This document shows, piece by piece, positions 3,660 through 46,591 of a DNA stretch of 64,000 nucleotides (positions are counted from its first letter, which is position 1; every line of letters starts with the position of its first letter). The notes under the pieces are model-generated. The model was not told the DNA's origin, searched no databases, and was given only the letters and a program-made list of their open reading frames with translations. Where the stretch lies: IMG/VR virus record IMGVR_UViG_3300028800_000057. One strand, written 5' to 3'. The stretch comes from a virus (Duplodnaviria > Heunggongvirae > Uroviricota > Caudoviricetes). The position numbers and the translations under genes were made by a program.

Positions 3660-4205
3660 ATGGCACTCATTGAGACCCCTATCCATTGGCTTTGGTTGGC
3701 ACGCGGATCCGAGATCAACTTGAATCTCAGTCCAACAGGCCACGCCTTAATGGTACTAGACAACCACGAGAGAAGTATTGGAGAAGGAGGAAGAGTTCCC
3801 CTGAGGGTCCCCCTCATCTGGATTAGCACTAGACCTGAGGCGCATCCTTCGGTCGAAGGGCTCATAATGGGACACTTTCTTCGTCTGCTTGAGCGAGCAC
3901 GTCTGTTTGATCAAGCACGCGTGCTTCAGATGCGCACCCCTCACTTGTACGGGATCTTGAAGTCGAAGGGGCTGCGAGGGGGCGTGAGCAGTGGGGCTGA
4001 TGGATCACCGTTGACCGACTCAGCTGAGCTAGGGTTCGTCTGCTTGAGCCACACCCTATCCAACATCACAGGGTTTACCGTATTGTCACCAGGAAGGGTT
4101 GGTGACCTCTTGCTCCCGCACTATGTACAGGAGAACAACAACGAACCTGACCCCTCAGTGGAAATTACACGAGTGAGTAGGTACGAGAGAAAGTGGGTCA
4201 TCTGA
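3660..4205 (+). CDS. hypothetical protein with C-terminal SRYERKWVI tail
   Basis: ORF after motif copy 3; shared C-terminal motif family. Confidence 0.55.
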   Translation: MALIETPIHWLWLARGSEINLNLSPTGHALMVLDNHERSIGEGGRVPLRVPLIWISTRPEAHPSVEGLIMGHFLRLLERARLFDQARVLQMRTPHLYGILKSKGLRGGVSSGADGSPLTDSAELGFVCLSHTLSNITGFTVLSPGRVGDLLLPHYVQENNNEPDPSVEITRVSRYERKWVI

Positions 4206-4459
4206 TGGCCAAGCGTCGCGCGGGTATGGATAAGAGGCCCGGGATGTCCACATGGGATCATCAGCAAGCTGACAAATGGGTTCAGAAGTTCCTGGTACTC
4301 CTCGCCGAGAAGGGGCATAAGCCCGGGTTTCGATATGGCAAGAGTCTCTACCTGGACATGTTCGAGTTCTTCAGTCTAGTGTCGGCGGCCGTCGGCGGTA
4401 GCCCGATGGAGGTTGCTCTCGGGGTCGCTATCAGTGAACTGACCCGGGTAGAAGACTGA
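4193..4459 (+). CDS. hypothetical protein
   Basis: ORF. Confidence 0.35.
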   Translation: MGHLMAKRRAGMDKRPGMSTWDHQQADKWVQKFLVLLAEKGHKPGFRYGKSLYLDMFEFFSLVSAAVGGSPMEVALGVAISELTRVED

Positions 4460-4676
4460 GGTGGTTGTAGGAGCCGTCGTCGTTGGTGGTCCACCTCTGA
4501 CCCCTTCGACTATGATGAGGCTCCTGATGGTCCTTCTGGAGGCAGCAAGGGTCCATGTAGAAAGTGGCCGAGCACCGAGGATAGTGCTTGAGACAGAGTA
4601 GGCAAAATCCCGTGAAGCCTAATTCTGAGTACTCGTCTCGACACTCATGCTCGGTATGCTCAGGACACTTCATTGA

Positions 4677-4976
4677 CTACCCAGTCTGCTTGCGCTCAAA
4701 CATATTCCAGCTCGGGTCCTGCTCCGAGAGCGCGCGACAGCGCATGGTGGCGGCCAGCATATCAGGGATGGTGCGTGCCATCAAGGAGTCTTTCATTTCC
4801 TCTGGTAGCCCCTGGTACAGGGTGACGATCGATCTTGCCTCAGTTGAATTGACCAAGTAGCCCCTGACATGGGTAGCCTGCCTCAGCGCGACAGCTTCAA
4901 ACTCAACAATGATTTCAGCGTGGTCAGCCTTCGGTGGTAGAATGAATGTCCCTGATATAAAGTCCTTAGCTTCCAT
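4677..4976 (-). CDS. hypothetical protein
   Basis: ORF in minus block. Confidence 0.4.
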   Translation of the reverse strand: MEAKDFISGTFILPPKADHAEIIVEFEAVALRQATHVRGYLVNSTEARSIVTLYQGLPEEMKDSLMARTIPDMLAATMRCRALSEQDPSWNMFERKQTG

Positions 4977-5133
4977 GGTATCCCCTTTTCCCGGATGATA
5001 AGGTAAGTTACGCGCATGGCATAGTCGATCTCAACTACTTTCTTATGAAAAGTACTTCACGAGGCTATAATACTAGGCTCAAGTATCGTCAACCCTAGCA
5101 AGTAACAGGGTTTCTCCTAGGTATATTCAGACA

Positions 5134-5658
5134 CTACCACATGAGAAGATCTGATATCTCTCCAGCTTTCATCATAGCTAAGTTCTTGTTCTTGTAGCGA
5201 TAATCCCCAGTAACCTCCATAGCCCTATCAGCCCAGCGTGGGAGAACGAAGTTCTCGGCTTGCTCGATACTCTGAAACTCTATTTCTAGTAGTATCAGGC
5301 CGTCGAGGGTATCAAGAAAGGTGTCTACCTCGTACTTAGTCACCATCCTATCGGTGGTAAGCACGGTGCGGAGCTTACGCAGTGAGTACTTGCACTTGGG
5401 CCAAAGAGTATCGAATACCCACTGAGGGATCTCGGTCTCCCACTCGGGTCGTTCGAGGTCACCGTCACCCTTGACGGTCATGGTGTGGAGGATTCCGCTG
5501 CTCCGGCGCAACCTAAGTTCAGAGTCTGAGTCTAGGAGGTATCCCTGTTCGATCAGGACTGACTGGCTACCCTGAAGTTCCCCCGGAGCGAACTTCAGTC
5601 GAAACTTCCGCTCTATCTCAGTTCGAATATCTTCAGGTTCTCCGTTGGGCATGCCCAA
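5134..5658 (-). CDS. CYTH-domain protein (triphosphate tunnel metalloenzyme family)
   Basis: N-terminal EIERKF (ExExK) signature and acidic strand pattern typical of CYTH. Confidence 0.55.
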   Translation of the reverse strand: MGMPNGEPEDIRTEIERKFRLKFAPGELQGSQSVLIEQGYLLDSDSELRLRRSSGILHTMTVKGDGDLERPEWETEIPQWVFDTLWPKCKYSLRKLRTVLTTDRMVTKYEVDTFLDTLDGLILLEIEFQSIEQAENFVLPRWADRAMEVTGDYRYKNKNLAMMKAGEISDLLMW

Positions 5659-5679
5659 CGTACACCGAGTTCTCGGGTT

Positions 5680-6459: not shown

Positions 6460-6555
6460 CTTCGAGGATAATATCGTGGTGATGTGCCTATTGCAAGGGA
6501 TATCTGGCTTGGTTACTGGGTCAGATACTTTTAATCTTGGTGCTATATTGAGGTT

Positions 6556-7104
6556 GTGATAGGTTGTCCACCCATGCCCTCAAAGATAACGATACTCGTG
6601 ATACTTCCGGCGATTGCAACACTGATGCTGATCATTGGCTACGCTGGATCGAAGTCAATAGGAGTGGGGTCCCGTCCCGCCCCTGCTTGTCCGACTTGCC
6701 CGGTATGCCAAGACTACTCGGATGTCATGAAGACCATCAACACCTTGAGTCACCAGTTGGGGGTTGAGTCAGCTGGAAAGAAGGTCGATGAGATGGGCCA
6801 AGCCAAGTTTCAGGTTGGTCAGTATCAAAAGGTGGAGCAAGCTGAGGCTGACAAGGTAGAACTCCAGAAGTATCTGAGGAGTTGCGCCAAGGTCCCTACC
6901 GCGTGGTTCTGCTTTGATGGGCTACTTGATCGAATTGAAGTGGCAAAGGGTGCCTATTCGTATTTCCTAGTGATCAACAAGGTTACCATGCCTCAGTTGT
7001 TCGGTATCTGCAATTTCATGTGGTCAACCACCTCAATGGATCGGTGGGCTCGACACAACAACCATACCTGCAAAGAGTTCGACATTCATTACACAGAGCC
7101 CTAA
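6556..7104 (+). CDS. hypothetical membrane protein
   Basis: N-terminal hydrophobic segment ITILVILPAIATLMLIIGYAG. Confidence 0.45.
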   Translation: MIGCPPMPSKITILVILPAIATLMLIIGYAGSKSIGVGSRPAPACPTCPVCQDYSDVMKTINTLSHQLGVESAGKKVDEMGQAKFQVGQYQKVEQAEADKVELQKYLRSCAKVPTAWFCFDGLLDRIEVAKGAYSYFLVINKVTMPQLFGICNFMWSTTSMDRWARHNNHTCKEFDIHYTEP

Positions 7105-7366
7105 CTTATTGATGCGTACATCTTGGGTATGGCAGAGCTTAAGAGTAGCATACCCCCGCCGGTTGAAGCAGTTCGAGGCTTGTACATCAACCCAAAGATC
7201 TCACCCCCGAAGCCTGTGAGGATCATTCCGCAGGTGGCACCGATTGGAGTCAACAAGGCCCCACCGAAGAAGAGTGGTCGCCCCCGACGCTTCAATGCCA
7301 ACTTCAGTTGACGTCTTAGAGATCCCCCGGTACACTAGCCCCACTTTCAATCTGGATTCATTCTAT

Positions 7367-7395: not shown

Positions 7396-7397
7396 AG

Positions 7398-7886
7398 CTA
7401 TATGACCGGTGGGCGTTCGTATCGAGACAGATAGTTCCTTGGCCCAACGCTAATCTCACGAGGTAGTTTGATTTGTGGGTCTGACGTTATGTTCATGTAC
7501 TGAAAGTTGGCTTGGACATCAATCTGAGAATAGGCTACCCCGAGCTCTATGGTTGTGTATTCCCCGTTGATGAAGCCAACTATGTCGCCAAGCTCGTCAC
7601 GGACTGGAAGGGTAGAGTCGCACCCGAGACTGAAGATGACCCCGTGCAGGGTTCCGTGGAACATGTGTTGAACCCGACGTACTGCTGACTCCAGGTACTG
7701 AGTCACAACCTGCTCTAAGCTATCATCTATGGTCGCTCTGAAGCTCTGACTGGTAGGGTTGAGCCCGTCTCCGCCAGCCCATAGCGTGGTGTGGAAGTAT
7801 TCTGAAAAGGTGATGAACCTCCCATAGGTTGCGAAGGTTGGAACCTCGCCGAGGGGGATCTGGTACCAGTGAACAGGGACAATCAT
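7398..7886 (-). CDS. hypothetical protein with C-terminal SRYERPPVI tail
   Basis: ORF; shared C-terminal motif. Confidence 0.55.
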   Translation of the reverse strand: MIVPVHWYQIPLGEVPTFATYGRFITFSEYFHTTLWAGGDGLNPTSQSFRATIDDSLEQVVTQYLESAVRRVQHMFHGTLHGVIFSLGCDSTLPVRDELGDIVGFINGEYTTIELGVAYSQIDVQANFQYMNITSDPQIKLPREISVGPRNYLSRYERPPVI

Positions 7887-9184: not shown

Positions 9185-9209
9185 GAAACCTACTCCTCAC
9201 GCGTAATAG
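9178..9209 (+). promoter_or_regulatory. conserved promoter-like motif copy 4
   Basis: aGGTTGAG-N15-GCGTAATAG. Confidence 0.55.
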
Positions 9210-9514
9210 TGAACATGATCTACCCAAAGCAACCGAATCAGGAACCAGAAAACTTCTCAAAATGGATGGGCTTCGAAGTCAAACCATCGGAGTACTACCC
9301 GGGCAAGGTATTCGTAGCAACCAACGAGCGTGGGCTAGCCATACTGGAAGCCTGCTATGATGGAATCTACTGGGCGGCCAAGATTCGAATCGATGACAAG
9401 TTCGTTGGTCAGGCCATGTCCATGGATCGCTCGACGGCAAGACGTGAGGCTGAACGAAGGCTTGCTGATGATATGGCCAAGGATCCGGACGCTCTGACCG
9501 TCATGTCTCACTGA
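9209..9514 (+). CDS. small protein with dsRBD-like C-terminal motif (likely ATG start at 9215)
   Basis: G.AMSMDRSTARREAERRLA resembles GxGxSK..AK..AA..AL. Confidence 0.45.
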   Translation: MNMIYPKQPNQEPENFSKWMGFEVKPSEYYPGKVFVATNERGLAILEACYDGIYWAAKIRIDDKFVGQAMSMDRSTARREAERRLADDMAKDPDALTVMSH

Positions 9515-9559: not shown

Positions 9560-9898
9560 ATGCCTGAACTGAAAAACCCTGACTTCTCGACTTGGTTCGG
9601 GACTCCCATGGTTCAAGACCAAAAAGACCCCAATGTATCTCACGGTGAACCCCGTGAAGGGGTTTTATTAGTCGAGACCCTGTACGTTCAGAACCCCTTG
9701 GCAAAAGGGAAGCGACGGGGTGAGGATTGGACCGCCACGATAGAGGTCAGCCTACCCTCCGATTGCATACTCGATACGGTGGCCAAAGGTACTGGTTTTG
9801 AGTCAGATCGATCTGAAGCCCGCGCTCGCGCGATAGCCAATCTCAAAGAACAACTTGACCCAATGATCCAAAACCTAGTATTCTTGGGAGTACTATGA
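9560..9898 (+). CDS. small protein, tandem paralog with dsRBD-like C-terminal motif
   Basis: AKGTGFESDRSEARARAIANL. Confidence 0.45.
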   Translation: MPELKNPDFSTWFGTPMVQDQKDPNVSHGEPREGVLLVETLYVQNPLAKGKRRGEDWTATIEVSLPSDCILDTVAKGTGFESDRSEARARAIANLKEQLDPMIQNLVFLGVL

Positions 9899-10203
9899 GC
9901 GGAGAAGCCAGAAAAGCCTACTTTACCCATGACCCCCAGTTCGATACTTGGTTGGAGAAAACCCTAACAGATGAGGGTACTTACGAGGACAGCGAAGGGT
10001 CCCTCACCGAGTGGTATAACGGGGTCCATTGGAATACTAGGATTCGCATCAAGGGGGACGGTCCTCATATCACCGATGACTTGGTGGCCGAGGGTTGTAG
10101 CGAGGACCGCGCGCTTGCGCGCCAGGAAGCGGAACGTCTTCTGAGGGTGAAGCTTCGGTCCCTCTTGGAAAATGCTGAATCTTTTGGGTTCAGTGATTGT
10201 TGA
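9895..10203 (+). CDS. small protein, tandem paralog with dsRBD-like C-terminal motif
   Basis: AEGCSEDRALARQEAERLL. Confidence 0.45.
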   Translation: MSGEARKAYFTHDPQFDTWLEKTLTDEGTYEDSEGSLTEWYNGVHWNTRIRIKGDGPHITDDLVAEGCSEDRALARQEAERLLRVKLRSLLENAESFGFSDC

Positions 10204-11359: not shown

Positions 11360-11631
11360 CTACCGGAGTTCCATCATTCTAGTGTGATAGGCACTCTCGA
11401 CCCGTGCGCGCCAAGCGTTGATCTTACCACCCACTTCGCGTTTCTGGTCTGCAGGGACGTCGCCCATCATCCGGAGTACCCCTGTGAAGTCGCTCTGCTT
11501 ACCGAGTATGCAAGCTCTTGCGCTACTCAACGCTTCAGGAGTACGAACCGAAGCAAACTGCTGACGATAGTTTGCTTCAATTACTTGGAGTCTGGCTTCA
11601 ATACTCTGGACAGCTTCCTCTGAGGTAGGCA
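11360..11631 (-). CDS. hypothetical helical protein (track ORF 11360..11803 trimmed to internal ATG to avoid overlapping promoter and + gene)
   Basis: ORF; start choice is inference. Confidence 0.35.
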
Positions 11632-11662
11632 TGATACTCAAGTACACCGAAAGATGTACTTC

Positions 11663-11694
11663 TTGTTGAGATTCCTGCCCGTCATGCGTAATAG
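11663..11694 (+). promoter_or_regulatory. conserved promoter-like motif copy 6
   Basis: TTGTTGAG-N15-GCGTAATAG exact. Confidence 0.6.
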
Positions 11695-11699
11695 AAGAC

Positions 11700-12032
11700 A
11701 TGCCCACCGAAACCGCACGGACCCCCGCTGACTTCGACGCTGCTCTTGAGACTTTCGTCCGTTTGGCCGAGACTAATTCCAACAAGGACAAGTCAGAGCT
11801 CAATCAAGTCACCCTGACCGTCATGCGCGGCCCGCGCTACTGTCGCGTTGTCAGCGCATACACAAATGCTTCGGATCAACGTTCGGTTTTCTGCTTCGTT
11901 GACCGAGATGGGACTATCCTCAAGGCTCACAGTTGGAAGGGTCCTGCAAAGGGCGCGCGGGGTAGCATATTCAACACGGACAAGGGTGCAGCCGCTGTCA
12001 CTCCGTACGGGGCTGTCTACTTCAGACGCTAA
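11700..12032 (+). CDS. hypothetical protein
   Basis: ORF after motif copy 6. Confidence 0.5.
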   Translation: MPTETARTPADFDAALETFVRLAETNSNKDKSELNQVTLTVMRGPRYCRVVSAYTNASDQRSVFCFVDRDGTILKAHSWKGPAKGARGSIFNTDKGAAAVTPYGAVYFRR

Positions 12033-12036
12033 GGAG

Positions 12037-12354
12037 CCTATGGCAAAAGTCACAAGTAGGGTGATTGGAAGGATGATTGGGGAGATCAATGCTGAGGCCA
12101 TCGCTAGGATGGATGCTTTGGCTGAACAGTGGAGAACTGATGTACTAATTCCTTGGTGTCAAAAACATAAGCTCACCATCTTGATCGGCAATGGTACATG
12201 GAAATTCTATGACAAGAACGGTGAATACTTTGACGGAACCGAGCAAGATATGATGAAACCTATTAACAACGTCCTTGGTCAACCCGGACTAGGGTACGGT
12301 GACTACTTCGGGTACCATGTGGAATCAGTAGAGGAAAGCGACTTACTAGCCTAA
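12037..12354 (+). CDS. hypothetical protein (internal ATG of track ORF 11848..12354, preceded by AGGAGCC)
   Basis: SD-like sequence, ORF. Confidence 0.4.
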   Translation, partial: PMAKVTSRVIGRMIGEINAEAIARMDALAEQWRTDVLIPWCQKHKLTILIGNGTWKFYDKNGEYFDGTEQDMMKPINNVLGQPGLGYGDYFGYHVESVEESDLLA

Positions 12355-12365
12355 AGGAAAGAACC

Positions 12366-12590
12366 ATGCCACGAAGCGACCATGTTGTAATCGAGGGAAG
12401 AGTGACCTCTGCTCTGGGTGGTGGTCAGTATGAGGTCAAGTCCCAGGATGGGTCTGATGCAATTCGGGCTCAACTCTGCGGAAAGATGAAGAAATTCGGC
12501 ATTCGCTTGATCCCTGGTGATGATGTGAAAGTCGAAGTCGCGCCGTCGGACAAGACCCACGGTCTTGTCACTTGGAGAACTAAAAAATGA
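12366..12590 (+). CDS. infA: translation initiation factor IF-1 homolog
   Basis: S1-like 74-aa protein; strong similarity to IF1 pattern (HVVIEGRV..G.Y.V....G....A.L.GKM+K..IR+..GD.V.VE..PYD...G.+..R.K). Confidence 0.8.
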   Translation: MPRSDHVVIEGRVTSALGGGQYEVKSQDGSDAIRAQLCGKMKKFGIRLIPGDDVKVEVAPSDKTHGLVTWRTKK

Positions 12591-13162
12591 TGAGCCTGAA
12601 GTTTAGACCACCAGGGTACAGTAGTCCAGAGATGAAAGCTCGTGCTAGAAATCTTTGCACAGAGATCCTTCGTGAGCTAACCGAGTCCAATATGCCCGCG
12701 GTGGCCGAGCTAGACTCTGAGGATCACTATCGAATTGCACTCACGGTTAAGAAGGAGACCTATAACGTGGTGGAGGTTCACGAGATATTCGAACGACGCC
12801 ACCCAACGGGAAAGTTCAAGTTCAAGTACCATCGAATCTATGTGGGCAAGATTCGTGAGTGTGTCTGCAGGATGTACGAGCAGACCGAGGTAGCGAAGAA
12901 CCACTCTATGGTCAAGGTGGCGAATGTTTTGAAGGATCGCTTCCGGGCGATTGAGTCTGCAAGCATTGCGAACCGACTCAGCAAGGATATTGAAAAAGCA
13001 AGGGTGACCCTCGTTGCTAACCTGCGCCGGGACTTCCCTGAATTCACGCAGTACATCCAGGATAGCCCGACGACTGACGTTGAGCTGCGGTTCCGAGTAG
13101 ATGACTTGACCGCAAGACATATGCTCGTAGCTATCGCCCTTGGAGGAGGACTACCCAGGTGA
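12587..13162 (+). CDS. hypothetical protein
   Basis: ORF. Confidence 0.5.
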   Translation: MMSLKFRPPGYSSPEMKARARNLCTEILRELTESNMPAVAELDSEDHYRIALTVKKETYNVVEVHEIFERRHPTGKFKFKYHRIYVGKIRECVCRMYEQTEVAKNHSMVKVANVLKDRFRAIESASIANRLSKDIEKARVTLVANLRRDFPEFTQYIQDSPTTDVELRFRVDDLTARHMLVAIALGGGLPR

Positions 13163-13261
13163 AGGGCTACCTTAGTTAGAAAACGTAACTATTACATCTT
13201 GTTAGGTGTCAGGTTACCTTAGGGTTGCAATTTCAGAGATGCTAGCGTAGAAATACTTCAA

Positions 13262-13498
13262 ATGCCCACCACCCTCCAAGTTTCAGTCGAATTCAACCCA
13301 TTAGAACTAAGTTATGGAGACATGAGGGCTCTGCTTCTCGTTGACTTCGAGAAGCAGTTCATAAGGATGTTGTTGGACCGGCACGGTGGTAATCTATCGA
13401 AGGCGGCCAAGGAAGTGCGGATGGACCGGAAGCACTTGCACGACCTGGCCAAGAAACATGGATTGAGACAAACCCGTAAAGTACTGGAAAAGGAGTAA
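13262..13498 (+). CDS. small Fis-type helix-turn-helix DNA-binding protein
   Basis: C-terminal GGNLSKAAKEVRMDRKHLHDLAKKHGL resembles Fis/NtrC HTH. Confidence 0.5.
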   Translation: MPTTLQVSVEFNPLELSYGDMRALLLVDFEKQFIRMLLDRHGGNLSKAAKEVRMDRKHLHDLAKKHGLRQTRKVLEKE

Positions 13499-13505
13499 GT
13501 GAGTT

Positions 13506-13733
13506 ATGTCATGTTCCAACTGTGGTAGTGAGTATTGTGATGGCGAGAAGTGCGATGAGAACGGGGGCCAAGATCCATTTCCCGACCCAACTATTGACGA
13601 CGATGTTGAAGAGGGGGGTGACGATGGTGTAGAGGGTCTTGATGACGATGAAGATCTTGATGATGACGAAGATCTTGATGATGACGAAGATCTTGATGAT
13701 GACGAAGATCTTGATGATGACGACGAGGAGTGA
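13506..13733 (+). CDS. highly acidic repeat protein (DEDLDDD x4) with N-terminal Cys cluster
   Basis: tandem 21-bp coding repeats; about 50% D/E. Confidence 0.5.
   Translation: MSCSNCGSEYCDGEKCDENGGQDPFPDPTIDDDVEEGGDDGVEGLDDDEDLDDDEDLDDDEDLDDDEDLDDDDEE
13641..13722 (+). repeat. tandem 21-bp repeat GATGACGAAGATCTTGATGAT x about 4 (coding, inside acidic protein gene)
   Basis: direct inspection. Confidence 0.7.
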
Positions 13734-20556: not shown

Positions 20557-20588
20557 ACTGTTTTGCCTCTTGTTCTGTTGTTGAAGTT

Positions 20589-30633: not shown

Positions 30634-30658
30634 GCGAGTCATTGAGGGCATAGCAGTA

Positions 30659-30715
30659 GCCTCGAAGTACCCTCGAAGGCATAGGTGGCCCTCGAATGGT
30701 GTGGCCCTCGAATGG
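30659..30715 (+). repeat. iteron-like direct repeats: CCTCGAA x4 including perfect tandem 16-mer GTGGCCCTCGAATGGT x2 (30684-30699, 30700-30715)
   Basis: direct inspection in 460-bp non-coding region upstream of methyltransferase. Confidence 0.65.
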
Positions 30716-31093
30716 TAAGGTTACCCGCTGCCTAATCTGTGAGACAATTCGTTGGAAGACCGAGAGCAAGGACAGGGGTAGGCGCGTGGTACTCTTCCAA
30801 CCCCGCCGCTCCACTGAGTGGGATCGGGTAATGCCTCCTTGCCTCAAGACTTAGACCAGAAGTGCTTCTTTGCAGGTCGGACTCCCCTACTTCTAAGGTG
30901 GAAGTCGTTGGTGTCGGTGTCCCAAGGTCTCCTACGTCTACGTCTGAGGCTAATTAGTACGAGGCCAACTGCAACTGCAACTACGGCTAGAATTATCGAT
31001 AGTGCCACGAAACTGTATTACGCTTCAGCACACCTGATCTCAACGATAAATTGACTTTCCTGTGGGCCGACTCTCTCGGTGTAATGGTTTTCA

Positions 31094-38543: not shown

Positions 38544-40481
38544 CTAGGTTGTAGCTGGCTTGTCAGTCTTCTTACCTATCATCTTGCCAACTGAGGATGC
38601 GATCTCGTTGACTGCGCCCATGGTCTTCTGAACAGTCTCGACCGTGGAGGCGTCTGCGCCGGCCAAGAACCCACCGAAGGCCTGGGAGAGGCCCATGCCC
38701 GCGTTGAAGTGCTGGGACATCTTGGCGACGTCCTCAGGGGTACCGTAGACGTTGGCTTGGATCTTTCCGTAGAACTGGGCAGTCGCTTTGGCCGACTCGA
38801 TTCTGACCAGGGCTTCTTGGGTGATTTGGAGTTTGGCCAACTCGAAGTTCTGAGCCGCCTCACCGTTGGCTGCACGAGCTTCTAGTTCAGGCTTGAGGAC
38901 CTCTTCAACTCGTTGCTTGTCGATCTGGACCTCGCGAGCCTTGACCTCGACAGGGACCATGGCCAGAGCTTTCTGACCCTCAGCAGCAGCTAGCAGCTTG
39001 GCTTTCTCACCGTCAGCTTGGGCAATGAGGGTTGCCTTGTTACCAGCGGCTTGAAGTTCTGCTGCTTTCGAATCTGCTGTTGCCTTCTTGGTTGTAGCTT
39101 CAGCATCCGCATCAGCCGATGCTTTGCGCGCCTCAGCCTCTTTCATGGTCCGATAGGCGCCGGCATCAGCGGTCCTCTGGGCGGTTACATAGTTCTTCTC
39201 AGCTTCACCTTGAGCCGCAATAACTGCCTTCTGCTTCTCTCGGTCTGCTGCAGCAACTACCTCTACCGTTTGGATATTCTGACGAGCCTTCTGTCGGTCA
39301 GCTTCAGCATCCGCTAAGAGGGCTTCCGCCTTGGCTTTCTCGGCTTCAGATCCAGCAATGGCTTTCTGTTGGTCCCGCTTGGCGACTTCCACCTTCTGTT
39401 CAGCAACCACGATGGCTTGCTGTTGCTGACGCTTGGCAACCTCGACGGCCTGTTCTTGAGAAACCTTGGCAAGGATTGTCTGTTGTGCGTTCTCGGTTGC
39501 AGCCACATCGATTTTCCGTTGAGCTTCGATCTGGCTTTGCTTACCAATGCGTTCCTGCTCAGCTTGAATTGAGAGTACTTGAGCCGACTGATTCGCTTCA
39601 GCCTCAGCTTGCTTCCTCTCCAGCTCTAGGATCTGAGTTCGTGTCTGAACGTCCTGATCCTTTCGAGCTTGCTCACCGGTGCGGACGATGGTGTTCCTCT
39701 CGGTGAGGTTCTTCTGAGTGATTTCCGCAATGGTTCTCAGCCCTTGGGCGTCGAAGATGTTATCATTTTTCAGGTTGGTAATATCGGTCTGATCCAACTT
39801 GGAGATGGTGACTGTTTCAAGGAGGAACCCGTTGTGCTTCAAGTCCGCAGTGACCCCCTCCACAACTTCCTTCAAGAACTCATCTCGGTCGCTGTTTAGT
39901 TGTTCTAGGGTCTTCTTGGCAGCACTCGTGCGCAGAGCTGATACCAGCTTGTCTTCAATGAGGGCCGCTACACTCGACTCATAGGACCGTCCGTCAGACT
40001 TTCTTTGTTGTTGAGAATTCACATTGACTTCGCTCATCTTGTCACCAAGGGAACGGGCTGCTGCTTTGATATCCTCATCCGAGGCTTGTACCCGAACGTA
40101 GAACTCAGCTTGGACGTCGGCGCGCAACTTATCACTGGTGATGAGAGCATCGGCCCCAATACGTTGTACTGGCAACTTGATGGTCTCAAGGGACACTCGA
40201 ACTATCTGGTGGATGACAGGGAGGATAACCTGACCACCATCTCGAATGACCTTCAACCCGCCCATGCCAGTCTTGACAAAGGCCTCACTTGCCTTTGTTT
40301 TGACATACAACTTGGTGATTACGAGAAGTGTTACGCAGATCAGAACCAGCGTGATTCCGCTGATAGTCATGATGACGGAGGACACCCCCGGTACATGGTG
40401 CGTTGTGAATGTGTTTACTGCTATTGGACTGGCAATTAGAGCTATCCCAAAGAGCAACAGAAAAAATAGACCTATACCCAT
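38544..40481 (-). CDS. flotillin-like SPFH/band-7 protein (YqiK-like) with N-terminal TM and long Ala/Glu/Lys/Gln coiled-coil
   Basis: TM helices, SPFH-like VIRDGGQVILPVIHQIVRVSLETI, extended EA-repeat coiled coil. Confidence 0.7.
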   Translation of the reverse strand: MGIGLFFLLLFGIALIASPIAVNTFTTHHVPGVSSVIMTISGITLVLICVTLLVITKLYVKTKASEAFVKTGMGGLKVIRDGGQVILPVIHQIVRVSLETIKLPVQRIGADALITSDKLRADVQAEFYVRVQASDEDIKAAARSLGDKMSEVNVNSQQQRKSDGRSYESSVAALIEDKLVSALRTSAAKKTLEQLNSDRDEFLKEVVEGVTADLKHNGFLLETVTISKLDQTDITNLKNDNIFDAQGLRTIAEITQKNLTERNTIVRTGEQARKDQDVQTRTQILELERKQAEAEANQSAQVLSIQAEQERIGKQSQIEAQRKIDVAATENAQQTILAKVSQEQAVEVAKRQQQQAIVVAEQKVEVAKRDQQKAIAGSEAEKAKAEALLADAEADRQKARQNIQTVEVVAAADREKQKAVIAAQGEAEKNYVTAQRTADAGAYRTMKEAEARKASADADAEATTKKATADSKAAELQAAGNKATLIAQADGEKAKLLAAAEGQKALAMVPVEVKAREVQIDKQRVEEVLKPELEARAANGEAAQNFELAKLQITQEALVRIESAKATAQFYGKIQANVYGTPEDVAKMSQHFNAGMGLSQAFGGFLAGADASTVETVQKTMGAVNEIASSVGKMIGKKTDKPATT

Positions 40482-40525
40482 TTTGATTTACATCTTTCCC
40501 CCTGCGAGAGCAGGGTTTAATAAAC

Positions 40526-41173
40526 TCACCCACCAATGGTGGGATCAACAACTATTGTGTACACATCAAGAGCTTCGTTGTATTCGAAGGTTAGAATTGG
40601 AGTGCCTTTGGCAATAGGCTTGTCCGACCTGCATTGGATTTGGTAGCGGTCCCCACTCCTATTCGTGATTTGAGCTACCCCACCAGTACTGTCACAAGCT
40701 AGGGTGACAGTTCCAATACACCCAATGAGGTCTACCTTCTTCACTGAATCGGTTTCAGTGGTGGGCATGAACTTACCCACGGTTCGACTCACGAAGGCAG
40801 TACCAAAGAACATCGTGATGGAGGCAACGGCTACTGAGATAAGAGCGAACCCACTCCACACCTTGATGAGTGCTCCGAGTATCGTGTTCATGCAGATCCC
40901 AGTACCTGCAAATATCAAGGACAGAGACATGAATGAGATGGCAAGTGGTACCCTCCCAAACCCTAGGAAGCCAAGTAACCAACTCCCCTGTCCCTCCCCA
41001 TCCTGATCCCCTTCAGCGTCATGATCCCCGTCTAGGTGAAAGTCACCGTGGATGTCCCCATGAACCCCTACGTCGTGACCAGCACCTGAAAACCCGACTC
41101 CAAGTACGGATAGTATTCCGATTGCCAGCGGGATGTAGAAGATCAGATTATACCACTTGAAAAAGTCAGACAT
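40526..41173 (-). CDS. NfeD-like membrane protein (YqiJ-like) with His-rich segment and C-terminal OB-fold
   Basis: TM segments, GHDVGVHGDIHGDFH, C-terminal PIAKGTPILTFEYNEALDVYTIV. Confidence 0.6.
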   Translation of the reverse strand: MSDFFKWYNLIFYIPLAIGILSVLGVGFSGAGHDVGVHGDIHGDFHLDGDHDAEGDQDGEGQGSWLLGFLGFGRVPLAISFMSLSLIFAGTGICMNTILGALIKVWSGFALISVAVASITMFFGTAFVSRTVGKFMPTTETDSVKKVDLIGCIGTVTLACDSTGGVAQITNRSGDRYQIQCRSDKPIAKGTPILTFEYNEALDVYTIVVDPTIGG

Positions 41174-41240: not shown

Positions 41241-41591
41241 ATGACTAAACTTCAGCCAGGTACCATCTTTGAAGACTCAGAGGGGTATCTCTTTTGGGTC
41301 CTCCTTGTTGACTCAGAGAGGAACCTTGTGTATGTGCAAGATGATCCACTACACGTACTCTCCCCATGTACTCGAGTGATTCGGATCTTCACTATCTGTG
41401 ATGCACTTGAGGATGAGTTCACAGTTCGAGACCCAACCTACGACGAGATGGGCCGGTTCCTTGGGGTGAACCGAACGACGTTCGTCGACTCCCATAACCT
41501 GGACACAATCCCGTCGCCCCCTAACCTAGAGAGCCTCAGACCAACCGCAGAGCATCCTTCAATCCTGGAGACATACTCGCAAAAAGCCTAG
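41241..41591 (+). CDS. hypothetical protein
   Basis: ORF. Confidence 0.4.
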   Translation: MTKLQPGTIFEDSEGYLFWVLLVDSERNLVYVQDDPLHVLSPCTRVIRIFTICDALEDEFTVRDPTYDEMGRFLGVNRTTFVDSHNLDTIPSPPNLESLRPTAEHPSILETYSQKA

Positions 41592-41946
41592 TATTGTACT
41601 CGTGGAATGATGTCGATGGATCAGTGATAACCGACTGATCTGCCCACTTCACAACACCAGCTTCTTTGGAACGCGGCTCCCCCTTCCAAGATCGAATTAG
41701 AAATGCCAAACAAGGGCGAGGCTCCCCACATTCTACTCGGTCCTTGTCTTCGAAGATAGGCTCACAGTGGATTACCTCGATCCCAGTCTCCTCCCATACT
41801 TCCCGTATGATAGCCTCCTCAGCTGTCTCGCCCGGGTCGATCTTCCCACCGGGTAGCCCAAAGTCGTCAGGGTTGTCTTTGCGCGATACTACAAGTATCT
41901 GACCCCTTTTGACAAATAATCCGGTTACCGAGAAAAGTTGGCTCAT
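41536..41946 (-). CDS. NUDIX hydrolase
   Basis: Nudix box GLPGGKIDPGETAEEAIIREVWEETGI. Confidence 0.75.
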   Translation of the reverse strand: MSQLFSVTGLFVKRGQILVVSRKDNPDDFGLPGGKIDPGETAEEAIIREVWEETGIEVIHCEPIFEDKDRVECGEPRPCLAFLIRSWKGEPRSKEAGVVKWADQSVITDPSTSFHEYNTRLFASMSPGLKDALRLV

Positions 41947-41947
41947 A

Positions 41948-42424
41948 TTAGTACAGCGGGCTCTTGTTTAGGTTAATTGTCACGTCTTGGAAGAGTATGG
42001 ATCCATTCTTCACAGAGGCAAAGTAGGCAAGAACCAAGATGTTCCTGTCTAGTCTGCGTAACCAGGCAGCTGCATGTTGCATATCTTCGATCTGTTTATT
42101 CTGGAGAGCTACTTTTCCCATACCACCGAAACGATACTGATAGTACCCGCAACCTGCATGGGCAATCAAGTGGATAGTATTGATCTTGTGCCCTTTGACA
42201 AGAAAAGAGGTTCCTGACCGGCAGGCCTCTGACTCAATAATCGAGGCTCCTACCATGTCCAGGAGCGCGGGTCCGCCGGGCATCGCCATCACATCGTACC
42301 GCTGACAACCGCTGTTCCTGAGTAGCTCAAAGATTGGTTTACTGAACCGGCCATCACTGCACTGAATGACTAGTGTATCAGGGTGATCCTCTTTGAACCC
42401 AGGTAGTGTGGTGAATTCGCTCAT
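41948..42424 (-). CDS. beta-carbonic-anhydrase-like protein (Cys-His-Cys zinc site pattern)
   Basis: IQCSDGRF and IAHAGCGYY resemble CSDSR / HxxCG. Confidence 0.35.
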   Translation of the reverse strand: MSEFTTLPGFKEDHPDTLVIQCSDGRFSKPIFELLRNSGCQRYDVMAMPGGPALLDMVGASIIESEACRSGTSFLVKGHKINTIHLIAHAGCGYYQYRFGGMGKVALQNKQIEDMQHAAAWLRRLDRNILVLAYFASVKNGSILFQDVTINLNKSPLY

Positions 42425-42519
42425 TTTAGTTGTCTTTCCTACTGAAGTTGCGGTACTTATCTACACCGGACCAAAATGTCTAGGACTTTCAATCTTTTCC
42501 TTGAAGATGGTGGCAGGAG

Positions 42520-43119
42520 ATGAAGGGTAGAATATTCGGGCTAACTGGTGGAATAGCTTGTGGAAAGAGCGTTATATCCAGACTATACCAGGATAACGGG
42601 GTCCGCATGGTGGATGCCGACGTGGTGGCTCGAGACGTAGTGGCCCCGGGCACCCCAGCGCTATCCCTCTTAGTGAGTAACTTTGGAAGGGACATTCTAC
42701 TCCCCGACGGGTCTCTTGATCGTCCGAGATTGGGGGCTTTGGTATTTACGGATTCAAAGAAGAGGGCCGTTCTTGACAACACCCTCCGTCGATACTTGAA
42801 TGACGAGATACGACTTCGCCTAAAGCAGGCCGTTGACCAATACCCACTGGTTGGGTTTGAGGCTCCCCTACTCATTGAACACGGGCACCACCTGGAGTTC
42901 AGACCCATAGTCGTTGTAGCAGTATCATCCGAGATACAACTACAACGATTGATGGACAGAGATGGGTTCAACGAGCAAGAGGCGCTCGCGCGCATCAGCT
43001 CTCAGCTTCCAATCAGTGACAAAGTCAAACTTGCAGACTATGTACTGTGGAACGAAGGATCTAAGGACGAACTTTACAAGGAAGCACTACACGTGCTCTC
43101 CAAGATCAAGTTCCCCTAA
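42520..43119 (+). CDS. coaE: dephospho-CoA kinase
   Basis: GLTGGIACGKS P-loop, VDADVVARDVVAPG. Confidence 0.8.
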   Translation: MKGRIFGLTGGIACGKSVISRLYQDNGVRMVDADVVARDVVAPGTPALSLLVSNFGRDILLPDGSLDRPRLGALVFTDSKKRAVLDNTLRRYLNDEIRLRLKQAVDQYPLVGFEAPLLIEHGHHLEFRPIVVVAVSSEIQLQRLMDRDGFNEQEALARISSQLPISDKVKLADYVLWNEGSKDELYKEALHVLSKIKFP

Positions 43120-43120
43120 G

Positions 43121-43390
43121 TCAGTACCCGTCATCCTCACGACGTCGGCGCCCACCACCCCCGCTACTCTTCTTCTTGGGTCCGAAGTCATCCTCGGGAA
43201 AAGATGTGACACCACTGGGTGCTGGCGCTGGTAGACCCTCTTTCTGTGCCTTCTTGATATCCCTGCATGGTTTACATCGGCGGGGATCTGTGAAGTTCAT
43301 TCGAGAGAAGAACTCCTGGTCCTTTGACCTAAATACAAAGTCTTTTCCACAATCGCAGCAATTAAGGGTCTTATCTTCGAAGTCTGACAT
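43121..43390 (-). CDS. zinc-ribbon protein with Gly/Arg-rich tail
   Basis: CCDCG...CKPC. Confidence 0.45.
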   Translation of the reverse strand: MSDFEDKTLNCCDCGKDFVFRSKDQEFFSRMNFTDPRRCKPCRDIKKAQKEGLPAPAPSGVTSFPEDDFGPKKKSSGGGGRRRREDDGY

Positions 43391-43584
43391 GTTTGGGGAA
43401 TGGTTTCGTTGATTCAGTTCGGGTTCACAGGTCAGCCAGAATAGCCGCCTTCTAATCCTACACCGGTCAACCTCACTGAAGGATTATTAGGTGAGAGCAT
43501 GTACCATCATGTAAACCATAAATTATCAATAACCCCTAAAGTGGTGTACTGAAAAGCCGTTACTAGTGTAAGAAGGGAGGGAAC

Positions 43585-43995
43585 ATGACAGGGAACATGC
43601 TTATAGTTGAGGACGAGCCAGTACTCAGGAGTACTTTCACCCGTATTCTCAAGTCATTAGGACTGACTGTTACAGCGGTGGGGTCGGTGACAGAAGCCAA
43701 GAAGGCATTCCAGGGTGGAGTATTTTCTTTGGTGATGTCCGACATGATGCTACCTGACGGGACAGGGCGGGACTTTCACTCTTGGGTGACTGAGAACTTT
43801 CCTGACCACCATCACAGGTTTTTCTTCTGTTCAGGGAGCATGAGTGCGGACCTGAGAGAGTATGTCGACTCGAATGACTGCAAGCTACTTGCAAAGCCAC
43901 TGGATCTCTCAGCCCTAATTGCGGCTATCGGAGAGAATTGTGATGCCCCTCAAACCAATAGAAGATCTGCTAATGCAGATGGGGTTCTGTCCTGA
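43585..43995 (+). CDS. stand-alone response-regulator receiver (REC) domain protein
   Basis: MLIVEDEPVLR ... VMSDMMLPDGTG. Confidence 0.6.
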   Translation: MTGNMLIVEDEPVLRSTFTRILKSLGLTVTAVGSVTEAKKAFQGGVFSLVMSDMMLPDGTGRDFHSWVTENFPDHHHRFFFCSGSMSADLREYVDSNDCKLLAKPLDLSALIAAIGENCDAPQTNRRSANADGVLS

Positions 43996-44386
43996 GGACT
44001 TCGATTCGATTCGAAGGGCGCGTACTCGAGAAGAAGCTACTCAGAAACTTGAGTCCCTGAAAGCACGCTTCAAGAAAGAACTCCGGAAGAAGATACCGGA
44101 CCTTCACCCCGACCGGACCCGTGGGGACCCCAAGAAGACCATCCAATTTCGTCTTCTACTCGACTTTGCGCGCGAGTTGGAAGATACTCAAATCCCTCAG
44201 GTGGTGGTACCCCCGCGTGTCATGGTCTACGAGGTAACCTTCCACAACCCAATCCCTAGGACTCGTAGTAAGAATGCATGGGCGGGGCTCCCAGATGAGA
44301 TTAGGACTAAGGTGACTTCGACCGCTCCAGCAACTACAGTGGCCGGAATGAGACCATCCGGTGTCGTTAGTACTCGTGGAAGATAG
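43919..44386 (+). CDS. hypothetical protein
   Basis: ORF. Confidence 0.35.
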   Translation: MRLSERIVMPLKPIEDLLMQMGFCPEDFDSIRRARTREEATQKLESLKARFKKELRKKIPDLHPDRTRGDPKKTIQFRLLLDFARELEDTQIPQVVVPPRVMVYEVTFHNPIPRTRSKNAWAGLPDEIRTKVTSTAPATTVAGMRPSGVVSTRGR

Positions 44387-44756
44387 CCCGCAACGACCGG
44401 TGGCTCCCATACCGCTTCCGGACTTGTCCCATTTGACCCAGGCAGAGCTTTCTGCCCTTCGTGGGTACCTGACTACAAAAAGCAAGGAGGCCCGGAAGGA
44501 AGCCACCAAGGTAATCGGGAAGGATCATAAGGTTCGAGATCTCTGGCTGAAGACCCTCGGCCTCAAGAGCGATGCAACCCCAGAAGAGCGGGCTGCCGTC
44601 GAGACCCCGTTCTACGAAGAAATTCTACGTCAACCCGAGGCTTTCGTGTTATATGCTTGGGCCAACGGGCTCGCTACTCTGGATAGGCATGTATGGGAAA
44701 CAATGCTAGACCGATCAAAGGTGACGACAGAAAAGAAACCACTATCGAAACGTTGA
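44361..44756 (+). CDS. hypothetical protein
   Basis: ORF. Confidence 0.35.
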   Translation: MSLVLVEDSPQRPVAPIPLPDLSHLTQAELSALRGYLTTKSKEARKEATKVIGKDHKVRDLWLKTLGLKSDATPEERAAVETPFYEEILRQPEAFVLYAWANGLATLDRHVWETMLDRSKVTTEKKPLSKR

Positions 44757-45142
44757 AGAGGCTTGGGCCCAGCGCTTCAGACCTTACCTTGCTCCAGATC
44801 TTGGATCAAGAGAGGAATCTTTTCTCCTTGGCTAGCAAGGAGATCATGCATTTCCTTGTCGACGAGCTAATTCGTCGAAAGGTCTACCCGGAGGATACGC
44901 CTGAAGGTAACCCGAACTCCGTGTTCACTATGGTCGAGGGCTGGGGCGCCTACTGGCATGTCTGGAAGGGGACCTTGGAGTGCCCTCACTGCAAAGCTGA
45001 CCTACGAGATCACAAGATGGGTCCTCCTGGTCTCAGGCAAATTGGAGTAGTAGACAGGGGCTTGGACAAGATCACCCACTGGGTTTGCCCTGATTGCAAG
45101 GGGACGTGGGGTCGTGAGTTCACGCTAACGAAACAGGGATAG
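44693..45142 (+). CDS. hypothetical zinc-binding protein
   Basis: CPHCK...CPDCKG. Confidence 0.4.
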   Translation: MGNNARPIKGDDRKETTIETLKRLGPSASDLTLLQILDQERNLFSLASKEIMHFLVDELIRRKVYPEDTPEGNPNSVFTMVEGWGAYWHVWKGTLECPHCKADLRDHKMGPPGLRQIGVVDRGLDKITHWVCPDCKGTWGREFTLTKQG

Positions 45143-45578
45143 TGTACACGGTCTTCCCGGCTTTTCTTGCGTAGGTGATGGCTTGCCCAGTACCTGACTT
45201 GAAGTTGCCGTTGAAGAACGCTACTACAAAGGTCCCTCGGTCCACTAGGTACTCATTCCGCTTCTTGTAGCTCAAGTAGTGATCGTCCTCAGTAATTGGT
45301 TCCTGAAGTTCGATGACCAAGTCTGCGCGTCGAGTCCAGTTCCTAGTCGAGAGGGGTTGTCTATCGACGGTGTCCGGAACCACTACGATGAGTTTAGGCC
45401 TGATACCTTCTCGGTAGTGAAGGGCTGCCTTGAGAAATTCTGTGTCCACCCCACTTGCACCACCAAGGTAGACTTCGTCAATACTTAGGTTCATAAGCAA
45501 GGTAGCGGCTGCAGTCCACACCCGTTTCGTACTCTTGGGGCCAATAGTACGGTGACCCGTGATAGCAGCCGATTTCAT
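45120..45578 (-). CDS. YpsA-like SLOG-family (DUF1273) nucleotide-binding protein
   Basis: ITGHR, GGASGVDTEF, VVVPDTV, YKKRNEYLVDRGT, FFNG..GTGQAITYARKAGKTVY parallel YpsA motifs. Confidence 0.65.
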   Translation of the reverse strand: MKSAAITGHRTIGPKSTKRVWTAAATLLMNLSIDEVYLGGASGVDTEFLKAALHYREGIRPKLIVVVPDTVDRQPLSTRNWTRRADLVIELQEPITEDDHYLSYKKRNEYLVDRGTFVVAFFNGNFKSGTGQAITYARKAGKTVYTIPVSLA

Positions 45579-46075
45579 AGGTCGTAGATGAAGACTGGAA
45601 GATCACCCATTGTCTCTTGGATCAGAGGTTCTACCTGATCCCACTTTCCACCAGCGAGTCCACACCCAATCCTCGGGGCGTGAATAGTGGAGCCCTTCGA
45701 GCGAGCGCTCTCTGCTACCTTGGTCAAGCAAGTTCGAAGTGCATCGTATCGAAGCGGTGATGGACCTGGGTCCTCTTCAACCGCGTGCTGTAGACTTCCA
45801 GCCCTCCCATAACCAACCTGGGCAATCATGTTGGCGACCCAGAGACCAGGACCGACCAAAGCCCAGCCAACATTACCGAGGGCGAAGTCACCAGATCTAG
45901 TGTTGTGCCCTTCCTTGTACCACTTCCGGTACTGCCCTTCCGGTTCGGTCCAGCGCTTGGATAACGCCAACACGAAGCCCTTTCCCCAACCGCCCCTATC
46001 ATTGCAAATATGCATAATGATTCTAGATTCACTCGGTTGTGGACGAGTAGCGTCACCCTGCAAGTAAGTGATCAA
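45575..46075 (-). CDS. macro-domain protein (ADP-ribose binding/hydrolase fold)
   Basis: GDAT...IIMHICNDRGGWGKG resembles macro GD..D..AIVNAAN..L..GGGV. Confidence 0.55.
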   Translation of the reverse strand: MITYLQGDATRPQPSESRIIMHICNDRGGWGKGFVLALSKRWTEPEGQYRKWYKEGHNTRSGDFALGNVGWALVGPGLWVANMIAQVGYGRAGSLQHAVEEDPGPSPLRYDALRTCLTKVAESARSKGSTIHAPRIGCGLAGGKWDQVEPLIQETMGDLPVFIYDL

Positions 46076-46159
46076 TGCGCCTCCGATCTCTTGGTACTCT
46101 ACGTTTCTATTCCGCGCAAGCTATCAACGTCAAGCCGAGTAACTTTCTATAACCTATGA

Positions 46160-46591
46160 CTATTTTTTCTCTGGGTGGCATAAGTTACGAATGACTCTCT
46201 CGTGTCGGGTGGGGACGCACTCGCGAGGGGACCCAGTCTTACTCTTCAGGTGTGGCATCTCTCGGAGCAGCTGGTCAAGTACTTCTTGGTGGCCTGCCTC
46301 GGCCTTCTCCCATGTCGAATAACGCCACTGGGCCTGATCCATAGTTCCTCCGAATACCATGGTCTCAAATAGGAGTGGCTCGGCTCCGTCCATCCAGCGG
46401 TGATTGATGCCCATGAGGAAAGTAGTTGATACAAGGATCTCCTCGGTCCCAGAAAGATACTCATCCTTTCGTACTCTTCGAACTCCATGATCAGGATCTT
46501 GTACAATCCACTCAAGGCATTCGATAGAGCTGACGGGGACCGCCGTCTTTCCCTCGAGTTTGAAGAAACGACACATCGAGGGAAGATACAC
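46160..46591 (-). CDS. hypothetical protein with C-terminal TRHERVIRNL tail
   Basis: ORF; tail family. Confidence 0.45.
   Translation of the reverse strand: MYLPSMCRFFKLEGKTAVPVSSIECLEWIVQDPDHGVRRVRKDEYLSGTEEILVSTTFLMGINHRWMDGAEPLLFETMVFGGTMDQAQWRYSTWEKAEAGHQEVLDQLLREMPHLKSKTGSPRECVPTRHERVIRNLCHPEKK

Follow-up and report, generated by a model that had tools for sequence, protein, structure and literature searches.

The 64,000-nucleotide stretch of DNA considered here (IMG/VR record IMGVR_UViG_3300028800_000057, a virus of the Caudoviricetes; hereafter the window) encodes several proteins with mostly unrelated bodies that share a short peptide, here named the RYER tag, at or near one terminus. 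Its consensus is [S/T]-R-[Y/F/H]-[E/N/Q/A]-R, then zero or two residues, then [V/I]-[I/L]. Purifying selection on the protein maintains the motif, which was acquired as an add-on, lies at a terminus on a linker and is found in a single clade of uncultured megaphages. It probably acts as a modular short linear docking peptide that brings accessory proteins of diverse and often DNA-related kinds to a common partner.

The RYER tag and its carriers

The tags fall into two classes, which MAFFT joins through a two-residue gap as [ST]RYER(xx)[VI][IL] (example peptides: PRDGIETRYERILKNLEVDQ and GPRNYLSRYERPPVI). Class A reads S-R-Y-[E/N]-R-x-x-V-I-COOH and always forms the exact end of the chain. Class B reads [S/T]-R-[Y/H]-E-R-[V/I]-[I/L]-[K/R/E]-[N/G]-Φ and is followed by zero to seven further residues. 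The six open reading frames (ORFs) to which the first-pass annotation had assigned a common C-terminal peptide are all present where it placed them, with the terminal peptides that it gave. A further intact copy lies near the N-terminus of a small uncalled gene, and six of the seven intact tags in the window are thus C-terminal. The carriers, together with a decayed internal copy, are as follows:

3660-4205, plus strand: carrier 1, class A; tag SRYERKWVI-COOH at 4176-4202; stop codon TGA
7398-7886, minus strand: carrier 2, class A; tag SRYERPPVI-COOH at 7401-7427; stop codon TAG
24791-25294, plus strand: carrier 3, class A; tag SRYNRRPVI-COOH at 25265-25291; stop codon TGA
25498-25527, plus strand: decayed internal copy TRQERVLKSF, within the fused gene 25291-25905
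26416-26769, plus strand: carrier 4, class B; tag TRYERVIKNFL-COOH at 26734-26766, after a K/R-rich stretch; stop codon TAA
27836-28480, plus strand: carrier 5, class B; tag TRYERILKNL at 28436-28465; stop codon TAA
30602-30854, plus strand: carrier 6, uncalled small gene; N-terminal tag SRYERVIEG at 30623-30649
46160-46591, minus strand: carrier 7, class B; tag TRHERVIRNL at 46181-46210; stop codon TAG

The full ends of the carrier 5 and carrier 7 proteins are TRYERILKNLEVDQ and TRHERVIRNLCHPEKK, respectively. The carrier 5 gene and the 3′ end of the UDG gene share 11 nucleotides, and for carrier 7 the gene caller sets the start at M6, which gives a protein of 138 residues.

In a simple set of 110 genes built for the window, the pattern [ST]R[YH][ENQ]R occurs within the last 20 residues of six, against a mean of 0.007 and a maximum of 1 in 2000 per-protein shuffles; the regular expression was picked after the data had been seen, but the margin is still very large. 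An all-against-all comparison of C-terminal 20-mers, which is free of that bias, places the carrier tails among the top pairs, and the tails are the sole alignment that BLASTP returns between carriers. No match in Pfam, PHROGs or NCBIfam covers any tail, and the body of the carrier 5 protein has weak PHROG matches of unknown function.

The first-pass annotation also held that the DNA beneath the motif differs from carrier to carrier, and that conservation is therefore at the level of the protein and not of a nucleotide repeat. The strings that it quoted (cgatacgaacgc, aggtacgagaga and cggtatgagcgc) were all found, and its conclusion is borne out by synonymous codon variation among the tails, which use AGT, TCT and TCC for Ser and AGG, CGA, CGT, CGG, AGA and CGC for Arg, as well as by substitutions among orthologues, in which the tag codons show 123 synonymous versus 61 mostly conservative non-synonymous pairwise differences. 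Because the shared residues are encoded by different synonymous codons, no nucleotide repeat lies under the peptide, and a DNA repeat or regulatory element is ruled out on this evidence. Recoding of stop codons is also ruled out, since TAG ends 22 of the 67 long ORFs and the carriers use a mixture of all three stop codons.

Conservation in related genomes

The syntenic relatives of the window comprise sequences of 226 kb (L007) and 465 kb (L008) and the IMG/VR contigs L010, L011 and L041-L045. The related contigs include ERZ25039473 contig_5628 (464,890 bp) and Ga0619418_09450563 (225,778 bp), and the longest record fetched for the genome of the window itself is ena:ERZ27245401 k141_93733 (146,615 bp). 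Metagenomic contigs, of up to a recorded 443 kb, encode proteins identical to those of the window.

The motif, whose absence from orthologues the first-pass annotation had named as the observation that would speak against it, is kept in the orthologues of the carrier families. Among homologues of the carrier 5 protein (27836), DGIETRYERI.K is retained in 12 of 13, down to 37% identity, with T, R, Y, E and R invariant or nearly so against a mean column identity of 53%; the one homologue without it is chimeric. For the carrier 2 protein (7398), exhaustive searching of 1.84 billion representatives yielded four homologues (42-58% identity), and all of them end in [ST]RY[EN]R..VI-COOH, the residues R, Y, R, V and I being invariant. 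Orthologues of carrier 3 (24791) in L007, L008, L010 and L011 end in [SN]RY[EN]R.PVI, and those of carrier 4 (26416) in the same four genomes and in L030 and L034 keep [ST]RY[EQ]R[IV][IM]K[NS]F. The family with the N-terminal copy also keeps its tag in L007, L008, L010 and L011 (four to five genomes per family, the families of carriers 3 and 4 included), and the carrier 1 (3660) orthologue in L041 (71% identity) ends in VSRYNRKWVI. The carrier repertoire varies from genome to genome, and the 8.6 kb upstream of the window contain no carrier.

No cultured phage has a DNA-level match to a 7-kb block of this region or encodes the carrier 5 protein, which assigns the tagged genomes to an uncultured megaphage clade. 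DNA-pattern scans for T-RYER-[VI]-Φ-[KR]-N-Φ, covering IMG/VR, one genome each of 185,579 prokaryotic species and JGI metagenomes, returned only orthologues from this clade together with chance or internal matches. The tag was thus not found beyond this one clade, and neither the motif nor a comparable phage tag was found described in the literature searched.

Gain of the tag on an older domain

The carrier 7 protein (46160) belongs to a widespread small phage family with the signature …FETMVFGG…RYSTWEEAEAGH…, and its tag lies on an extension of about 42 residues behind a conserved alpha/beta body, for which a fold search gave weak WGR-like matches only. Linker and tag are present in 31 of the 34 homologues from the clade (at least 51% identity, on contigs of up to 435 kb) and in 0 of 32 more distant homologues, which serve as the outgroup. 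Members from the clade have a linker of about 20 residues, …EMPHLT.VVEEPEP.R…, followed by TR[YFH][EAS]R[IV][IL][RK][DN]L, whereas the outgroup proteins end 8-33 residues (mostly 22 or fewer) past the AGH helix; the three clade members without a tag may be truncated or miscalled gene models. The tail is likewise missing from homologues in phages of Rhizobium, Pseudomonas and Dolichospermum, and from that of a 642-kb uncultured phage, in which 36 kb contained no tags. In this family, the tag has been gained as an extension on an older domain. The E position varies (E/A/S/V), as does the Y position (Y/F/H/T/S), while both Arg residues and the aliphatic pair persist.

In a more distant member of the clade, the 98.5-kb contig L043, five or six class A carriers lie within 30 kb, among them two with new bodies (167 and 131 residues). 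L043 encodes a protein with a Pfam HU/IHF domain (30.1 bits versus a cut-off of 22.4), to which a 22-residue linker and a terminal SRYERPPVI have been appended. The modular behaviour expected of a terminal tag on diverse cargo, as the first-pass annotation described it, is therefore seen in the extension of the 46160 family, in the HU-like fusion and in retention by orthologues. The notion that the tag marks the junctions of split genes was rejected, an R2K fragment beside the L044 carrier being a mere remnant.

Linker and predicted structure

The 15 residues ahead of the tag contain 20% proline, against 5% in the proteome. AlphaFold2 models the carrier 5 protein, with low overall confidence, as a small beta domain, a helix, a proline-rich linker and a short helix (202-208) formed by RYERILK. 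The model of the carrier 7 protein, with a mean predicted local distance difference test (pLDDT) score of 90, consists of a compact body (1-106), a linker (107-123; pLDDT about 67) and a helix (124-133) formed by RHERVIRNLC. In class B, the Y, ΦΦ and Φ positions fall at i, i+3/4 and i+7, that is, on one helix face, and the segment ...R[VI][IL][KR][ND][LF]... is predicted to form an amphipathic helix of two to three turns. Class A, with its Pro-Pro or x-Pro, is incompatible with a helix.

An N-terminal copy of the tag

The position of the tag was one point on which the first-pass annotation held only in part: six tags are C-terminal as described, but one copy is N-terminal in a real, though uncalled, gene, and the tag is consequently not strictly C-terminal. 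This gene (30602-30854) overlaps the end of 30223-30633 and reads M-TQKPIR-SRYERVIEG, its sole canonical in-frame start being a conserved TTG (30602) seven codons ahead of the Ser of the tag. The frame is conserved as protein in L007, L008 and L010, with 28-41 changes at codon position 3 versus 11-19 at positions 1 and 2, and with synonymous differences in 24-28 of 79 codons. A library of 5.8 billion clusters contains no predicted protein that matches it, which indicates that gene callers have missed it. In the window, a 16-nucleotide tandem duplication (30685-30716; two copies of GTGGCCCTCGAATGGT) that is not present in L007, L008 or L010 frameshifts the gene into 30602-30718 and 30696-30854 and creates a new ATG for the second half. 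Since the N-terminal copy is real, the tag, at least in class B, does not depend on a nearby free C-terminus.

Relatedness of the carrier bodies

The description of the carriers as otherwise unrelated stands for most of the bodies, as judged by BLASTP and hhalign, with carriers 1 and 2 as a possible exception. The two proteins have an N-terminal P[IV]xW motif in common and match with an hhalign probability of 42% over their last 50 or so residues, and a third member, intermediate between them, is present in a relative; they may be remote paralogues. Profile matches of the carrier 3 family to the families of carriers 1 and 2 are confined to 9-13 tail columns, and by this comparison the carrier 3 body is unrelated to theirs. 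The bodies that can be read are nucleic-acid related or plausibly so, with statistical significance only for the HU-like match; they include the HU-like domain, the WGR-like fold, the K/R-rich protein, the UDG-coupled protein and a small Cys-containing protein upstream of a DNA methylase.

Gene fusions, weaker matches and a tag-like end outside the clade

The N-terminal module of the fused gene that contains the decayed copy (25291-25905) corresponds in L007 to a separate 80-residue gene ending in TRYERILEPR, and L010 has the same fused form as the window, likewise with TRQERVLKSF. Immediately downstream, two overlapping ORFs (25930-26280 and 26225-26452) correspond to a single 175-residue ORF in L007 and L008, and the split reflects either a frameshift pseudogene or an assembly error. 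The C-terminal half of this split gene is paralogous to the C-terminal half of 25291-25905.

Three further matches were discarded: that at 58876 is a false positive inside sigma-70 region 2, that at 23937 lies in a short ORF overlapping a gene on the opposite strand, and the tail at 19215 (PTRHTRRKNKQ) is not kept by orthologues. Downstream of the sigma-like gene 58759-59889, a 264-residue protein (59886-60680) with a weak ECF-sigma match (E = 0.018) has the tail LRRYEGVIKRVLERHFGV (RRYEGVIKRV), which resembles the tag, but its status as a carrier is doubtful. The tail AWDTIVENL at 8729 is no more than a candidate. Three tandem genes of about 100 residues (9209-9514, 9560-9898 and 9895-10203) have the motif [DN].(F)S.W in common near their N-termini and resemble a small family of tandem paralogues.

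Outside the clade, the unrelated AT-rich IMG/VR phage contig L014 encodes an acidic 222-residue protein (6565-7233, minus strand) whose end, KTRYESMLKNMNNKN, resembles a class B tag. It lies directly upstream of a 316-residue putative capsid protein and, by position and composition, may be a scaffolding protein; the match to the tag may be chance.

Genomic surroundings and a second terminal peptide

The window is an accessory region of a megaphage. Its genes include UDG, a Tad2-like gene, a C1 peptidase, two N6/N4 DNA methylases, an R2K ATP-grasp (17307-18083), a macro domain, an ADP-ribosylglycohydrolase, Ro60/TROVE-vWA, NUDIX, SPFH and NfeD-like proteins, and sigma-like factors. The C1 peptidase (29369-30196) is papain-like, has intact catalytic Cys, His and Asn motifs, and keeps its synteny with the carrier cluster across all relatives. 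Precomputed Pfam matches place an intein with a LAGLIDADG-type domain in its L008 orthologue (11463-13538; 691 residues).

Carrier 7 lies within a cluster of NAD/ADP-ribose and RNA-repair type (41536-51118) that is conserved in L020 and L021 and comprises NUDIX, CoaE, receiver domain, macro domain (45575-46075), WGR-like tagged protein (46160-46591), PTH2, ADP-ribosylglycohydrolase (48422-49342) and Ro60/TROVE-vWA (49481-51118). About 1 kb upstream of the Ro60/TROVE-vWA gene is a tRNA with the anticodon CTA (amber suppressor; 48349-48421, plus strand), which ARAGORN labels tRNA-Pyl and Rfam matches as a tRNA with 60.6 bits; bacterial Ro60 genes often have tRNA-like Y RNAs nearby. Membrane-associated genes lie elsewhere in the window: a 663-residue protein whose N-terminus has a hydrophobic segment and whose C-terminus is Ser/Asp-rich stands beside a faintly PspA/IM30-like protein (within 19864-22580), and a 645-residue SPFH/Band-7 protein stands beside a YqiJ/NfeD-like protein (within 38544-41173).

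A second tail, M[F/Y/L]ELESE-COOH, occurs at 32360-32380, 62001-62021 and 62750-62770. It ends the N6/N4 DNA methyltransferases 31094-32383 and 60687-62024 and an unrelated 180-residue protein (62231-62773), and methylase orthologues in L007, L008 and L010 keep ΦΦELESE at the chain end. This tail strengthens the idea that terminal peptides serve as labels in the clade. A broader proposal, which we regard as speculative, is that the clade uses a linear peptide address code of at least two terminal tags, the basic RYER tag on HU-like, WGR-like and other small proteins and the acidic ΦΦELESE-COOH tag on DNA methyltransferases. Such tags would direct proteins that act on DNA to a space built by the phage, which could be the inside of the capsid or a compartment for replication.

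Interpretation and alternative explanations

The RYER tag sits at a protein terminus, and a linker rich in proline and charged residues keeps it away from the folded body. If it is a docking peptide, classes A and B would offer the same surface of Arg, aromatic residue, Arg and aliphatic pair to one receptor, which would most probably be phage-encoded, and many unrelated accessory proteins would thereby be brought to the same place. The candidate sites for such a common partner are the capsid interior, the replication site or compartment, and a protease or unfoldase, and they are ranked here with procapsid loading first, the DNA, replisome or compartment second, and the protease or unfoldase third.

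Several points weigh against a shared docking function. No receptor for the tag has been identified, and the genes of the window include no capsid, scaffold, clamp or AAA+ gene to pair with it. Classes A and B could be two separate signals that have just SRYER in common. The predicted tail helix of the carrier 7 protein has a pLDDT of 74-82, and it may for this reason pack on its own body, while the possible paralogy of carriers 1 and 2 would reduce the number of independent acquisitions. A milder objection, which concerns timing, is that the location of carriers 4 and 5 in the UDG operon makes late, packaging-time expression less likely.

The best placed of the specific accounts, though still tentative, is packaging into the virion, a possibility that the first-pass annotation had also raised. 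The tag would bind a scaffold or the inner capsid, and the carriers would end up inside the procapsid and be co-injected with the DNA. It fits small accessory carriers of which several are DNA-binding or basic (the HU-like and K/R-rich proteins), the neighbouring genes of counter-defence type (Tad2-like, UDG, methylases, macro domain and ADP-ribosylglycohydrolase), a tag that occurs at either terminus on a flexible linker, and a genome of 440-465 kb, which implies a very large capsid. The L014 protein ending in KTRYESMLKNMNNKN next to a putative capsid gene would also be in keeping with it, but that resemblance may be accidental and the scaffold assignment is one of position and composition only. 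Set against packaging are the absence of structural genes from the window, the absence of a prohead-protease site before or after the tag, and the co-orientation and translational coupling of carriers 4 and 5 with UDG, which resembles a replication-phase operon.

Recruitment to the phage DNA, the replisome or a replication compartment through a DNA-associated hub (a clamp-like, import or retention factor) appears rather unlikely as the specific destination. The HU-like, WGR-like and UDG-coupled bodies and the small Cys protein upstream of a DNA methylase speak for it, as does the general tendency of clamp-binding-type hub motifs to lie at either terminus on flexible linkers, and the window encodes proteins of membrane-remodelling type (SPFH, NfeD-like and the faint PspA match). 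However, the tag fits no known clamp motif (QL[SD]LF, PIP or APIM), no clamp, chimallin or tubulin gene was seen in the available sequence, and most carrier bodies are without an assigned function.

A role in proteolysis, whether as a degron, as a tether for an AAA+ unfoldase, or as a recognition element of the neighbouring papain-like C1 peptidase, is less probable again. The arrangement of folded domain, flexible linker and terminal peptide is that of SspB, the class B core R-[VI]-[IL]-[KR] resembles LRVVK, class A chains always end in V-I-COOH, and an intact C1 peptidase accompanies the carrier cluster in all relatives. Yet the most conserved part of the tag, [ST]-R-Y-E-R, is unmatched in known degrons or in the SspB peptide, and the N-terminal copy is at odds with recognition of a free C-terminus. 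The peptidase, which the first-pass annotation had put forward as a possible recogniser of the tag, is linked to it by proximity only, and its co-occurrence is uninformative because all of the relatives examined are syntenic.

The tag is very unlikely to be a site of post-translational modification at which a phage enzyme, such as the R2K ATP-grasp ligase or an ADP-ribosylation system, would act on the conserved S/T, Y, E or R. The window does encode an R2K ATP-grasp, a macro domain and an ADP-ribosylglycohydrolase, and the polar residues of the tag are its most conserved ones, but no transferase is linked to the carriers. The variation of Y and E in the 46160 family, where both Arg residues and the aliphatic pair persist, suits a binding surface better than a fixed acceptor.

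Finally, the view that the tag has no common function and reflects chance, a DNA-level repeat or regulatory element at gene ends, or common ancestry could draw on the possible paralogy of carriers 1 and 2 and on the several tags that abut or overlap the start of the next gene, but it is already largely refuted by six occurrences where 0.007 are expected, scrambled synonymous sites, unrelated bodies, the addition of the tag to an older domain, and its retention in L007 orthologues that lack the downstream overlap.

Comparison with known systems

The closest phage counterpart is the capsid-targeting sequence (CTS) of phage T4, an N-terminal peptide of about 10 residues (MKTYQEFIAE) on IPI-III and Alt that the prohead protease removes after Leu/Ile-x-Glu. 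Like the RYER tag, it is a peptide of about 10 residues common to unrelated small phage proteins, several of them basic, DNA-associated or active in counter-defence, and it directs its carriers to the prohead. It differs in sequence and in being N-terminal with a protease site, whereas the RYER tag is mostly C-terminal, and no conserved [LI]-x-E was found flanking the tags. Encapsulin cargo-loading peptides are also terminal, borne on flexible linkers and attached to diverse cargo, and they dock inside an HK97-fold shell. Their sequences are Gly/Ser/Leu-rich (…SLxIGSLK…), unlike the tag consensus, and the cargo gene lies beside the shell gene, whereas the Pfam and PHROG matches of the genes around the carriers include no capsid or encapsulin family.

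The ClpX-binding LRVVK peptide of SspB has the same architecture of folded domain, long flexible linker and short peptide, and a comparable basic-aliphatic-aliphatic-basic core. Nevertheless, LRVVK, ssrA and MuA RRKKAI have no counterpart to [ST]-R-Y-E-R, and the tag also occurs near an N-terminus. Of the features expected of a ClpX tether or degron, the flexible linker is present and an LRVVK-, LAA- or RRKKAI-like sequence at the extreme C-terminus is not. The resemblance amounts to a loose R-Φ-Φ-K, and no Clp partner was identified for the tag. Clamp-binding motifs (QL[SD]LF, the PIP box, APIM with [KR][FYW][LIVA][LIVA][KR], and the T4 gp45-binding tails of gp43, gp33 and gp55) likewise are short hub motifs at either terminus of unrelated DNA-acting proteins, but no variant of the tag fits the QL[SD]LF, PIP or APIM consensus. 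The conserved C-terminal pentapeptide NWETF of chemoreceptors, which tethers partner enzymes on a flexible arm, offers a further likeness; it belongs to one protein family in a cellular system and has a different sequence. The acidic, Glu-ending second tail, taken with the R2K ATP-grasp (17307-18083), recalls RimK, which extends the C-terminus of ribosomal protein S6.

Three superficially similar signals were ruled out. The Tat signal ([ST]-R-R-x-F-L-K) is N-terminal, has consecutive Arg residues and precedes a hydrophobic h-region and a cleavage site, whereas the tags are mostly C-terminal, their Arg residues are separated by two others, and no hydrophobic stretch follows. Sorting domains of the PEP-CTERM, LPXTG and GlyGly-CTERM type, in which a transmembrane helix and a basic tail come after the motif, are excluded by the lack of a hydrophobic segment after the tag and of any NCBIfam or Pfam match to the tail. 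For the XRE/Cro helix-turn-helix, in which SRYER lies within an HTH_3 domain as …[IL]SRYERG…, no helix-turn-helix family was found on any carrier, and the tag is preceded by a proline-rich linker and followed by ΦΦ or x-P-V-I. The RYER tag is classed here as a terminal short linear targeting or docking motif, and it fails the sequence definition of each known system with which it was compared.

Linear targeting signals are well known in cells and encapsulins. In phages, to our knowledge, essentially the T4 CTS alone has been described, and we know of no phage-nucleus import signal that has so far been reduced to a linear motif. Should the RYER tag be a true address label, one regular expression would pick out functionally linked accessory proteins in an unannotated megaphage proteome, a single pull-down would reveal the common destination of the carriers, and a portable peptide capable of directing any protein into the capsid or a compartment of a phage could be put to use in engineering. 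If the address code of basic and acidic tags also holds, it would represent a simple, transplantable targeting signal of a kind undescribed in phages beyond the T4 CTS.

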